52,232 bases of DNA from Candidatus Pacearchaeota archaeon CG_4_10_14_0_2_um_filter_35_33. GTDB lineage: Archaea > Nanobdellota > Nanobdellia > Pacearchaeales > GW2011-AR1. The translations under genes were made by a program, and so were the position numbers. Numbering within the stretch: position 1 is the stretch's first letter; every line of letters starts with the position of its first letter. Shown here in pieces: positions 448 through 27,104 of the stretch. Below the pieces are notes generated by a model. The model made no database searches, was not told the origin of the DNA, and saw only the letters and a program-made list of their open reading frames with translations. The stretch is taken from positions 1 to 52,232 of the forward strand of contig PFOR01000009.1 of NCBI GenBank assembly GCA_002792635.1, written 5' to 3'.

Positions 448-573
448 GCGGGGGTTCCGGAGTGGTCAAACGGGCAGGACTTAAGAAGTCTGTCGTTCGT
501 TAGAACGATCTAAAACAGGATTAGGATATCCTGTGGCTTAGTGCCTTCGTAGGTTCGAATCCTACCCCCCGCA
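448..573 (+). tRNA. tRNA-Leu(TAA) with a 42-nt intron at canonical 37/38 (486-527)
   Basis: GCGGGGG/CCCCCGC acceptor stem; anticodon arm CAGGA-CTTAAG^ATCCTG; long variable arm; GTTCGAAT T-loop; a bulge-helix-bulge can be drawn at the intron junctions. Confidence 0.93.
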
Positions 574-580
574 TCAATCT

Positions 581-666
581 GGATTCGAACAGGTTCGAAT
601 ACTTCAGCGAATCCCTGAGCTGAAGTTACCAGGGAACGTAGTTCAATGAGTACCTACCCCCCGCAT
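581..666 (+). repeat. duplicated tRNA-Leu 3' end interrupted by a 52-nt structured insert (601-652)
   Basis: GGATTCGAAC (inverted T-arm) + AGGTTCGAAT + insert + CCTACCCCCCGCAT, identical to the tRNA 3' end. Confidence 0.85.
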
Positions 667-667
667 C

Positions 668-1390
668 TCATTTACTCAATTTTAGAAAATTCTCCTCAAT
701 CCTTTTTTCTACATATTTCAAATTCAATCCCTTCATTTTAGCAATCATTTGATAACTTTCTAGAACATTCACTGGCTCATTAGGAAACTTCTTATCTGGA
801 TGGCTATAAGGTGAATCAGTCTCACACAACAACTGCTCTATTGGCACAATCCTCGCAACATTCTGAAAGTGTTCACTTCTCTTAACAGCCGTCGGTATCG
901 ATAAAAACCAACCATTATCAATTATCCTTGAAACCAACTTCAGATTTCCTGAAAAATAATGCATTATCACTTTTTTTGCTTCAGCTTTTTCAAGAATTTC
1001 GATACACTCTCTTTCAGCTTTTCTAGAATGTACGGTTATAGGCTTATCTAACTCTTTTGAAAGAGAAATAAACTTCTTGAAAACAGTTTCTTGCTTTTTA
1101 CTTTTACCTTTAACAAAATCCATTCCGACCTCCCCAATCCCCCAAACCTTCTCAGAATTCTTCCTAATAAACTCAATTTCCTCATCTATGTTTCCTGGTT
1201 CATCAGGATAAACGCCAAGACAAATCTTAACACCATATTCCTCAAAATATTCTAACATTTTTTTATTAGTCTCGGAATCTATCCCATCACTAACTATAAT
1301 GATATTCTTCTTCCTAGCCCTTTCAACGGCTTTCTTTAATTTAATCTCTTTTTCTAACAAATCCAAATGACAATGCACATCTATAAACAT
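668..1390 (-). CDS. tatD: TatD family DNase
   Basis: DVHCHL, GIGEVGMD, VHSR, MHYFSG and ETDSPY motifs. Confidence 0.92.
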   Translation of the reverse strand: MFIDVHCHLDLLEKEIKLKKAVERARKKNIIIVSDGIDSETNKKMLEYFEEYGVKICLGVYPDEPGNIDEEIEFIRKNSEKVWGIGEVGMDFVKGKSKKQETVFKKFISLSKELDKPITVHSRKAERECIEILEKAEAKKVIMHYFSGNLKLVSRIIDNGWFLSIPTAVKRSEHFQNVARIVPIEQLLCETDSPYSHPDKKFPNEPVNVLESYQMIAKMKGLNLKYVEKRIEENFLKLSK

Positions 1391-24502: not shown

Positions 24503-24579
24503 ACGTCTGCGCTAGGATTCCCGGAGCGTGTAAGCGCGAGGGTGCTACGAAACTTGTTCTGCGAGCACGTTCGAATCCG
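24503..24579 (-). repeat. duplicated tRNA-Ser 3' end with structured insert
   Basis: Minus strand GGATTCGAAC...CTCGCAGAACAAGTT...GAATCCTAGCGCAGACGT versus the tRNA end GAATCCTGGCGCAGGCGT. Confidence 0.75.
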
Positions 24580-24588
24580 TAAAAAATA

Positions 24589-24672
24589 CGCCTGCGCCAG
24601 GATTCGAACCTGGGAATCCACAAGGGAAACGGGATTAGCAATCCCGCGCCGTAACCACTGGGCCACGCAGGC
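24589..24672 (-). tRNA. tRNA-Ser(GCT)
   Basis: GCCTGCG/CGCAGGC acceptor stem; CGGGA-TTGCTAA-TCCCG anticodon arm; long variable arm; G73. Confidence 0.93.
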
Positions 24673-26906: not shown

Positions 26907-26982
26907 AGCGGGGTGGAGCAGTCTGGAGTGCTCACCGGGCCCATAACCCGGAGGTCGCGTGGTTCAAATCCCGCCCCCGCTA
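26907..26982 (+). tRNA. initiator tRNA-Met(CAT)
   Basis: A1-T72 pair; three G-C pairs at the base of the anticodon stem (CCGGG/CCCGG); CAT anticodon; GTTCAAAT. Confidence 0.88.
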
Positions 26983-26983
26983 T

Positions 26984-27067
26984 ATTTGAAGAGATTTTCA
27001 AATACTTTAGTAAGCCTACGAGCTAAAGTTCCCGCGGAACTTGTTCTGCGAGGACCTGCCCCCACTA
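26984..27067 (+). repeat. duplicated tRNA-Met 3' end interrupted by a 51-nt structured insert (27004-27054)
   Basis: ATTTGAA (inverted T-loop)..TTCAAAT + insert + CCTGCCCCCACTA versus the tRNA end CCCGCCCCCGCTA. Confidence 0.8.
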
Positions 27068-27104
27068 TCAAAATTCTTATAAAACCCTCCCTCTAGAGAA
27101 TAAT

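Follow-up and report, generated by a model that had tools for sequence, protein, structure and literature searches.

tRNA genes of the window and the units behind them

The window, meaning the whole stretch of DNA analysed here (52,232 nucleotides), is contig C14 (GenBank PFOR01000009.1) of the Candidatus Pacearchaeota archaeon genome G000, an assembly of 777 kb in 27 contigs with 34-38% G+C and 89% completeness. By protein, the closest relatives of G000 are metagenome-assembled genomes labelled Candidatus Pacearchaeota, Woesearchaeota or Nanoarchaeota. The genome originates from groundwater/aquifer metagenomes, and the window stretch is present in 20 runs from 20 studies, 14 of these runs being flagged as possible sources of the DNA. 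Using ARAGORN with introns allowed, we found 40 tRNA genes in G000, three of which lie in the window. Reading the sequence behind these three, we found after each of them, within 85-95 nt downstream, a short unit composed of an inverted T-loop copy, a core of about 50 nt with two hairpins (hereafter E) and a copy of the 3' end of that same tRNA. The features of the three loci are as follows.

448-573, plus strand: tRNA-Leu(UAA), the intact target; its intron of 42 nt is canonically placed, at about 486-527; Rfam RF00005 (44.9 bits) and ARAGORN with introns
561-575, plus strand: Leu proximal repeat CCTACCCCCCGCATC, made of the T-stem 3' strand, the acceptor 3' strand, the discriminator and 2 nt
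574-580, plus strand: Leu spacer TCAATCT between the tRNA end and the inverted T-loop, read from the sequence
581-590, plus strand: Leu inverted T-loop GGATTCGAAC, reverse complement of tRNA positions 53-62 (10/10 match)
591-600, plus strand: Leu direct T-stem/T-loop copy AGGTTCGAAT, tRNA positions 51-60
601-652, plus strand: Leu core E, 52 nt, plus orientation, from alignment, covariation and fold
601-626, 627-630, about 634-644 and 645-652, plus strand: hairpin H1, linker TACC, hairpin H2 and tail of the Leu core E
653-667, plus strand: Leu distal repeat CCTACCCCCCGCATC, perfect copy of 561-575
24589-24672, minus strand: tRNA-Ser(GCU); ARAGORN and Rfam
24588-24579, minus strand: Ser T-rich spacer TATTTTTTAC, read from the sequence
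24578-24569, minus strand: Ser inverted T-loop GGATTCGAAC, read from the sequence
24521-24568, plus strand: Ser core E, inverted relative to the tRNA (class B, see below); covariance model match of 36.5 bits on the plus strand
24503-24520, minus strand: Ser distal repeat GAATCCTAGCGCAGACGT, tRNA positions 57-73 plus 1 nt (11/13)
26907-26982, plus strand: tRNA-Met(CAU); ARAGORN and Rfam
26984-26990, plus strand: Met inverted T-loop ATTTGAA, read from the sequence
26997-27003, plus strand: Met direct T-loop TTCAAAT, preceded by the loop GAGATT and folding with the inverted T-loop into a predicted hairpin H0
27004-27054, plus strand: Met core E, with H1, a TCC linker, H2 and the tail AGGA, plus orientation
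27055-27068, plus strand: Met distal repeat CCTGCCCCCACTAT, corresponding to 26970-26983 in decayed form (C>T, G>A; 11/13)

The tRNA-Leu(UAA) gene is missed by ARAGORN at its default settings and is detected by Rfam and by the intron-allowing mode. In the Leu unit, the segments 581-590 and 591-600 are also predicted to pair into a palindromic hairpin H0, and the distal repeat ends 1 nt short of the stop codon of a convergent TatD-like open reading frame (ORF; 668-1390, minus strand). The Leu core scores 57.6 bits and the Met core 52.7 bits with a covariance model that had each of them in its training set, and the fold of the Met core has a z value of -3.26. The Ser repeat begins four bases earlier in the T-loop and carries two G>A changes, both of which break a pair. 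The initial annotation of this DNA, made from the letters alone, had described the Leu unit as an inverted T-arm, a direct copy, a 52-nt insert and a perfect 3' copy, and this description holds base for base. It had placed the same layout after tRNA-Met and a rearranged one after tRNA-Ser; we found that the Met order is identical and that the Ser insert lies in the opposite orientation. The compensatory stem change that it had listed between Leu and Met (ACTTCAG/CTGAAGT versus ACTTTAG/CTAAAGT) and a second hairpin of the form GAAC..GTTC are both present in our alignment.

Architecture of the unit and structure of its core

Alignment of eight downstream regions of G000 separated the units into two classes. 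In class A (Leu-UAA, Leu-CAA, Met and Arg-GCG), the tRNA is followed by a spacer, the inverted T-loop, 1-6 nt, the direct T-loop, E in the sense of the tRNA, and a copy of positions 61-73. In class B (Gln, Ser and both Lys), the spacer and inverted T-loop are followed by the reverse complement of E and by a copy of positions 57/58-73. Not every insert lies at the T-loop position that the initial annotation had noted for Leu and Met: there are two junction types, and the repeat begins at 61 or at 57/58 depending on the orientation of the insert. In 32 units, taken from G000 and 26 loci, 15 repeats begin at 60/61 and 17 at 55-58; the spacer measures 0-21 nt, and the distance from the inverted T-loop to the repeat is mostly 47-74 nt. 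The repeat itself is 13 to about 27 nt long.

Three properties are common to this arrangement. The insertion leaves the tRNA gene intact; the sequence from a fixed point in the T-loop (61 or 57/58, by class) up to 0-14 nt beyond the gene occurs in two copies, which flank the insert as direct repeats; and an inverted copy of T-loop positions 53-62/63 lies at the tRNA-proximal junction.

The core E consists of two hairpins, H1 and H2, joined by a linker of 2-4 nt that often reads TNCC, and of a short tail behind H2, commonly GAGTA. When seven E sequences were aligned, 89.8% of the cells were paired and 8 of the 13 pairs had changes on both sides. The covariation score was reached by none of 500 shuffles, and shifting the partners by one column lowered pairing to 47-48%. 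Since the stems covary, the compensatory change seen between Leu and Met is part of a general pattern. The covariance model of E that had been proposed was built, and by their alignment the inserts are homologous and structured, with covarying stems. The two-hairpin fold is obtained for 22 of 29 cores, with a mean z of -2.0 and 13 of the 29 below -2. E is defined by its structure more than by its sequence.

Both classes carry the same element in opposite senses, because the class B element behind tRNA-Trp of the congeneric genome G002 matches the class A element behind tRNA-Met of G000. The Trp element scores 47 bits with a model trained on the G000 copies, in which it was not included, and its inverted H2 and tail, compared by reading with the direct Met copy, are identical to it or differ once in about 21-23 nt.

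Each copy belongs to its own tRNA

For 8 of the 40 tRNAs in G000, a copy of the last 13 nt of the gene lies downstream at offsets of +58 to +79. It is perfect for Gln-UUG, Leu-CAA, Leu-UAA and Lys-UUU, agrees at 11/13 for Ser-GCU, Met and Lys-CUU, and at 10/13 for Arg-GCG. The tRNAs Cys, Gln-CTG and Phe of G000 have remnants in which the inverted T-loop alone remains just 3' of the gene. The statement that every tRNA is followed by such a copy is thus right for the window (3/3) and wrong for the genome, where about one tRNA in five is.

Among the 39 tRNAs with 200 nt of downstream sequence, 7 reach at least 11/13 and 4 are perfect, against an average of 0.01 over 200 shuffles, of which none gave more than 1. 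In a cross-pairing control, in which the tail of one tRNA was compared with the downstream region of another, 11/13 was reached in 11 of 1521 pairs. These counts bear out the claim that each duplicate matches its own tRNA. A profile of E searched with nhmmer against the 777-kb genome (E<1) returned the eight tRNA-linked copies only. No 17-nt tRNA tails were found elsewhere in G000 beyond paralogous tRNAs, save for one match with two mismatches. Rfam gave only tRNA matches in the window at the gathering threshold, and none for 560-690 at E up to 10.

At G000:C10:94795-95098, tRNA-Leu(CAA), its unit, an intron-bearing tRNA-Arg(CCU) and tRNA-Gly(UCC) stand head to tail. The Leu-CAA unit probably lies within a polycistronic tRNA precursor, because its repeat ends only 4-5 nt before tRNA-Arg and leaves no room for a promoter.

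We also weighed whether an assembly or binning artefact had duplicated the tRNA ends. In its favour, the repeats have little length, and at 545-557, within the tRNA, Logan unitigs come to an end. However, contigs covering the Leu locus at 545-1500 have 0 differences in each of three non-source runs, one Logan contig of a fourth run spans 1-1500, and the same layout recurs in dozens of independently assembled genomes. The Leu unit is thus unchanged in independent assemblies, which settles the artefact concern raised at the outset; as far as contigs can show, this explanation is refuted, and we give it almost no weight. The unitigs concerned come from three runs and end within the T-arm/acceptor part of tRNA-Leu. 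Between 450 and 600 the depth increases by as much as about 15-fold, because tRNA words are common to other organisms in the sample. The junctions 574>725 and 574>807, considered as deletion alleles, were assigned to the tRNA-Leu of other organisms.

Occurrence in other genomes

A first covariance model (R1), trained on seven G000 copies, proved too narrow for the fast-diverging E. Over 60 relatives it gave one convincing new copy, together with weaker matches at L003 and L004 without a tRNA, and over 33 loci known to hold units it gave only 6 matches at E up to 1. Two further R1 matches, L005 (G044:C8:10564-10608) and L007 (G044:C12:69717-69761), were rejected as E copies and belong to a different repeat family. 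G044 belongs to the same order, and a repeat of 100 nt or more (ACTTGAAGG...TTCGCGAA with its flanks) is identical at the two loci; one of the two copies lies about 130 nt from a tRNA-Ala.

Because R1 was too narrow, we searched with the strict motif GTTCRAATCC N10-32 GGATTYGAAC, that is, a T-loop followed by an inverted T-loop. The order-wide counts rest on this motif and undercount the units. The motif was found in 84 of 301 genomes of the order, which consists of Pacearchaeota-type DPANN archaea, and the reversed control pattern matched in none of them. The motif also occurs in 8 of 147 genomes from other orders of the class, and full units outside the order lie behind a tRNA-Ser (G372) and a tRNA-Gly (G441). 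At 30 motif loci, 23 of 32 tRNAs had at least one tail copy (up to 2 mismatches) at +68 to +217, and units also stood behind further tRNAs that the motif had not picked. Further tRNA-linked copies, which the initial annotation had proposed to seek in relatives, were thus found in many genomes of the order and class.

Turnover among related genomes

Within the genus, occupancy differs from tRNA to tRNA. The tRNA-Met site is filled in G000 and empty in the congeneric G001 and G003, and tRNA-Trp has a unit in G002 but none in G000. Behind Lys-CUU, a unit is present in G000 and G002 and missing from G001 and G003. Behind Lys-UUU, G000, G001 and G002 each have one and G003 has none. At Leu-UAA there is a unit in G000, in G001 and in G003; the versions in G001 and G003 are longer and very different, and the copy in G003 has decayed.

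The same lineage of E also appears behind different tRNAs. The cores at Lys-UUU (G200) and Gln-CUG (G273) are 83% identical over 52 nt, those at Ser (G000) and Trp (G002) 75%, and those at Tyr (G037, from another family) and Lys 75%, against a median of 54% for all pairs.

On balance, and by a modest preference, we read the Leu, Met and Ser features as non-coding, non-autonomous insertion elements of about 60-80 nt that are specific for tRNA 3' ends in DPANN archaea of the Pacearchaeota/Woesearchaeota type. Its unusual features would be a repeat anchored in the T-loop, an inverted copy of the T-loop and a core that is recognised by its pair of hairpins. The idea of a miniature tRNA-targeting mobile element, which the initial annotation had raised, stands in part: it is supported by the match of each copy to its own tRNA, the homology of the inserts, the presence of one lineage at different tRNAs and the differences in sites within the genus.

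The distribution also bears on a different explanation, in which the unit is a module of the tRNA 3' flank selected by the host. It would act at the RNA level (trailer processing or stability, a tail decoy, or antisense) or at the DNA level as a protein-binding palindrome, with the tRNA-matching parts kept by selection or gene conversion. Compensatory changes that maintain the hairpins and the wide presence in the order are consistent with this, as is the Leu-UAA unit, which has the same layout and very different sequence in three congeneric species; the Leu-CAA unit, moreover, sits inside a Leu-Arg-Gly tRNA cluster and is probably transcribed. However, only 8 of 40 tRNAs have a unit, and orthologous tRNAs of sister species go without. 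Because E occurs in both orientations, no single RNA would be made from it. Pair-breaking transitions accumulate in the tRNA-tail copy, truncated stumps exist, a T6 run separates the tRNA from the unit at Ser, and there is no match in Rfam even at the most permissive threshold. The tRNA 3'-trailer RNA module that the initial annotation had named as an alternative belongs here too, and the two orientations and decaying copies speak against it. We consider a host-selected module improbable.

The Lys tRNA genes of G001 and G003 contain introns, and 3 of these 4 are without units, while the four intron-less Lys genes of G000 and G002 all have units. This comparison (L145, L146, L150 and L151 versus L001, L006, L144 and L147) involves far too few genes for a conclusion.

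Arrays, decay and the origin of the repeats

Several loci hold more than one unit. In the array at L030, two different E lineages lie between three identical 23-nt repeats, which include 7 nt of native flank that is also found after the last copy; the repeat at L055 includes native flank as well. Where it could be judged, the distal copy is followed by the native flank. At L053 there is a perfect 85-nt tandem duplication. The tRNA-adjacent 13-nt copy has 0 mismatches and the farther one 2 in the array L039, and 0 and 1 in L045, so that in both arrays decay has gone further in the unit more distant from the tRNA. We infer that arrays grow from the tRNA side, because new units would land beside the functional tRNA.

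Of 22 differences between a tRNA and its distal copy, 17 break a base pair in the copy; G>A and C>T changes make up the majority. The distal repeat is thus an unused copy that decays, and deletions leave stumps with the inverted T-loop alone.

These repeats are also where the main rival to the insertion-element reading comes in. Under it, the units are scars of integrase-type att sites or minimal cis-mobilisable elements: the proximal 3' end would be derived from the element (attL), the distal one would be the displaced original (attR), and the inner part (spacer, inverted T-loop and E) would be attP arms only, with the cargo lost or never there. A repeat that runs from the T-loop to the tRNA end or just beyond resembles the att identity blocks of tRNA-integrating elements, which Williams reportedly set out in 2002. 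The decaying distal copy and the tandem arrays, which look like accretion, fit as well, and G000 has tyrosine recombinase genes.

One observation in favour of an imported proximal end comes from tRNA-Lys(CUU) of G000 (C22:44923-44999, minus strand; L001 1566-1642). The gene reads 5' GACTCCG ... CGGGGCC 3' and has an A2.C71 mismatch, while its downstream copy (C22:44841-44857) reads CGGGGTC, where T71 would pair with A2; the sister species have G2-C71. A pairing T71 in the distal copy is expected if the proximal end was imported. The Lys(CUU) unit is 96% identical to the Lys(UUU) unit, and the tail of Lys(UUU) is CGGGGCC. The most economical reading of these sequences would be that homologous recombination copied the unit and part of the acceptor strand from Lys-UUU into the Lys-CUU locus. 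On this reading it is the distal copy that represents the original end, and the sequences suggest a recent replacement of the 3' end. Such copying is one probable route of spread among similar tRNAs, and hops between tRNAs that share only the T-loop are not explained by it.

Beyond this case, the att-scar explanation meets several difficulties. Among the 22 differences, only the one at position 71 of Lys-CUU favours an imported proximal copy, whereas the 17 pair-breaking ones show decay of the distal copy only. No integrase lies in or beside the units, and the larger, integrase-bearing version that the initial annotation had proposed to look for did not turn up, with no distant copy of a tRNA tail beyond 300 nt in G000 or within about 1.5 kb at 36 loci. 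One lineage of E stands at different tRNAs, each time with the repeat of that tRNA, for which a carried att copy is insufficient. E occurs in both orientations, although an element that rebuilds the 3' end should have one, and the spacer between the tRNA and the inverted T-loop varies from 0 to 21 nt. Among viral contigs of IMG/VR, one attP-like pattern of the Lys type had 0 matches, and the general motif gave 5 unrelated ones (palindromes or tRNAs). We therefore regard att scars as unlikely, while keeping them as the first alternative to the insertion elements.

Proposed mechanism and candidate enzymes

If the units are insertion elements, the duplication would be made from the target at the time of insertion, by staggered breaks or by copying. 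One break would fall in the T-loop of the T-arm DNA hairpin and the other just downstream of the gene. Recognition would rest on the T-arm, whose DNA naturally forms a hairpin and is nearly palindromic. The inverted T-loop agrees with the A/G T-loop variant of its own tRNA at all but 3 of about 75 motif sites (hand count), and for Trp and Phe, which have a TTCGATT loop, it reads AATCGAAC. Because this variant agrees, the inverted T-loop was probably templated from the target or later corrected towards it. Paper models of an integron-like attC x T-loop exchange, of an inversion between T-loop repeats and of snap-back priming did not reproduce the observed order of parts.

The enzyme would act in trans and recognise the T-arm; candidates are a host Xer-like tyrosine recombinase, or a recombinase or transposase carried by a virus or plasmid. 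Between tRNA genes with similar 3' halves, homologous recombination may spread the units as well, as the Lys-CUU case suggests. G000 encodes two Xer-like tyrosine recombinases (on C12 and C17) and a fragment (three PF00589 matches), none beside a unit. We read the integrase gene on C12, 1.5 kb from tRNA-Leu(AAG), as a Xer-like host gene, because it follows ribosomal-protein genes and no repeat of that tRNA was found. The single IS200/IS605-type Y1 transposase ORF (G000:C22:17353-17625, minus strand; L120 1462-1776) encodes 104 aa with an HUH motif, is apparently truncated or frameshifted before the catalytic tyrosine region, and has a perfect 8-bp hairpin just downstream. The intergenic region beside it (L120, about 1150-1185) contains the motif CGAACGAAGTGAG, possibly another small repeat, which also occurs twice within a 175-nt unit behind tRNA-Arg-GCG in another genus (L056, G242).

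The inverted and direct copies of neighbouring sequence on both sides of the insert could also have arisen without a dedicated enzyme. They would then be by-products of DNA replication or repair: forks would stall at the T-arm hairpins of strongly transcribed tRNA genes and templates would be switched through microhomology, which the universal T-loop offers, and the switches would yield the inverted T-loop, an E copied from another unit and a re-copied tail. The templated copies that flank the insert, the variable repeat length and the finding that no enzyme tracks the motif are compatible with this, and all junctions lie in or beside T-loop sequence common to all tRNAs. Against it stand the great regularity of the junctions (61 or 57/58) in 32 units from many genera, a two-hairpin core kept with covariation, which implies selection on E itself, and the much higher frequency in one order (84/301) than in the rest of the class (8/147). 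A by-product of this kind appears to us quite improbable.

The insertion-element reading has to be set against a number of observations that weigh on the other side. The inverted T-loop copy is not explained by any standard transposition scheme, and the repeat length of 13 to about 27 nt is variable, unlike that produced by fixed-stagger transposases. No enzyme is tied to the units, within or beside them, and Cas1 (PF01867), TnpB and reverse transcriptase were not found in the 89%-complete G000. In the 301 genomes of the order, Y1_Tnp is present in 78 and the motif in 84, and they coincide in 20 against 21.8 expected, while Cas1 is present in 18 and coincides with the motif in 5 against 5.0 expected (both hand counts); because these genomes are related, the co-occurrence is a lead and not a test. 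Terminal inverted repeats (TIRs) were looked for by eye only, and none is clear apart from a 5-nt TGAAC/GTTCA symmetry in some units. The conserved hairpins and the order-wide presence could reflect a host function, and the A2.C71 mismatch of Lys-CUU, set beside T71 in its distal copy, suggests an imported proximal copy. In contigs of four runs, in which rare variants would be hidden, no empty allele or excised form was found at 574-667.

A bolder version of the insertion-element reading, which we put forward tentatively and think doubtful, would make the units an unrecognised class of gene-less mobile DNA in the Pacearchaeota/Woesearchaeota class. Its core would be the two-hairpin sequence of about 50 nt, the T-arm would be read as a structural target, the inverted T-loop and direct tail would be templated at each insertion, and the chemistry would fall outside the known integrase, casposase, HUH and DDE schemes. 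A host Xer-like recombinase acting on single-stranded hairpin DNA might be the driver.

Comparison with known systems

Viruses, plasmids and casposons classically land at tRNA genes. Among described systems, the family 2 casposons behave most similarly: according to PMC4779613, they insert into the 3'-distal part of archaeal tRNA genes with a target duplication of 14 nt (elsewhere up to 35 nt), and they are found as tandem copies as well as in either orientation with respect to the target. The repeat of our units, 13 to about 27 nt at the 3'-distal part of the tRNA, is likewise a long target-site duplication. However, casposons are several kb long and carry cas1, polB and TIRs, whereas the units are 60-80 nt, non-coding and without evident TIRs; Cas1 was not found in G000 and shows no excess in motif-positive genomes; and the inverted copy of the target T-loop is a feature of the units and not of casposons. 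A search of the literature (full text, supplements aside) gave no description of such units, and the coordinates in the supplement of PMC4779613 might show miniature derivatives.

The units further share with elements of tyrosine integrases, and with their derivatives without cargo, the cis-mobilisable elements (CIMEs), their flanking direct repeats identical to the tRNA 3' part and their arrays. In integrase elements, the insert lies between direct repeats of the tRNA 3' part, the tRNA is preserved, and tandem accretion is accompanied by decay of the outer copy. The units differ from them in having no genes, in occurring in both orientations, in being two orders of magnitude smaller, and in that one lineage stands at different tRNAs with target-specific repeats. 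Miniature inverted-repeat transposable elements (MITEs) derived from IS200/IS605, the palindrome-associated transposable elements (PATEs), and the repetitive extragenic palindromes and their paired form (REP/REPIN) mobilised by REP-associated tyrosine transposases (RAYT) insert beside a fixed target of 4-5 nt without duplicating it and are not known to be associated with tRNA genes. They are likewise short, non-coding and defined by hairpins, and G000 has a Y1 homologue; the units, in contrast, have long direct repeats, the flanks of E differ by class, and Y1 does not track the motif. Classical MITEs of the DDE type have TIRs and a short target duplication of constant length; the repeat length of the units is variable and no clear TIRs are seen by eye.

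The attC sites of integrons, recombination sites of the single-strand hairpin type, also appear to resemble the units in their structure-conserved, sequence-variable hairpin and in their arrays at a fixed site, with the ATTYGAAC and GTTCRAAT boxes of the units resembling the inverse core and the core, and a Xer-related tyrosine recombinase would be the catalyst there as well. The units have neither cassettes nor an integron integrase, their boxes are T-loop copies, and an intact tRNA comes first. Readings of E as a C/D-box RNA, an H/ACA RNA or a hammerhead were rejected by eye only, as the required boxes are absent.

Mobile archaeal tRNA introns deserve a separate comparison. In 2010, Fujishima reportedly described short, structured and mutually related inserts that interrupt different tRNAs at non-canonical positions, the T-loop among them. 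The units differ from these in that E lies in a partial, unused copy downstream of an intact gene and not in the functional gene. An archaeal intron of the bulge-helix-bulge (BHB) type was rejected, with the BHB fold checked by hand; the interrupted copy holds only positions of about 51-73 and has no 5' half. E has no similarity to the nine tRNA introns of G000. In Caldiarchaeum, a 1.8-kb recombinase-bearing insert contains a tRNA fragment, a scale different from that of the units, and integration of a mobile element was proposed to have led to a scattered tRNA fragment and a gained intron (PMC3293823). The units likewise bear on the origin of partial and interrupted archaeal tRNA genes.

If the insertion-element reading is right, the units would be the smallest known tRNA-targeting mobile DNA, gene-less, 60-80 nt long, sparing the tRNA and building arrays. 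They would then give access to an uncharacterised recombination activity of DPANN archaea, organisms for which growth without partners has yet to be achieved. They mark tRNA 3' flanks in about a quarter of the sampled Pacearchaeota-type genomes and are easily mis-annotated as tRNA fragments or att sites. Because their presence differs between species of one genus, they may serve as strain or population markers.

Other observations on tRNA genes

Nine of the 40 tRNA genes of G000 have introns of 14-94 nt at or near the canonical position. The introns of Leu-UAA (window 486-527), Ile-UAU and Tyr have a common hairpin GTTCGTTAGAAC (in Ile, GTTCGTTAGAGC), and those of Thr and Arg-UCG have CTTTAGAAAAG in common. 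At L143 (G369:C13), in another order of the class, ARAGORN reports a tRNA with the anticodon TTA (UAA, "tRNA-Stop") beside tRNA-Glu, which may be of the suppressor type or a miscall.

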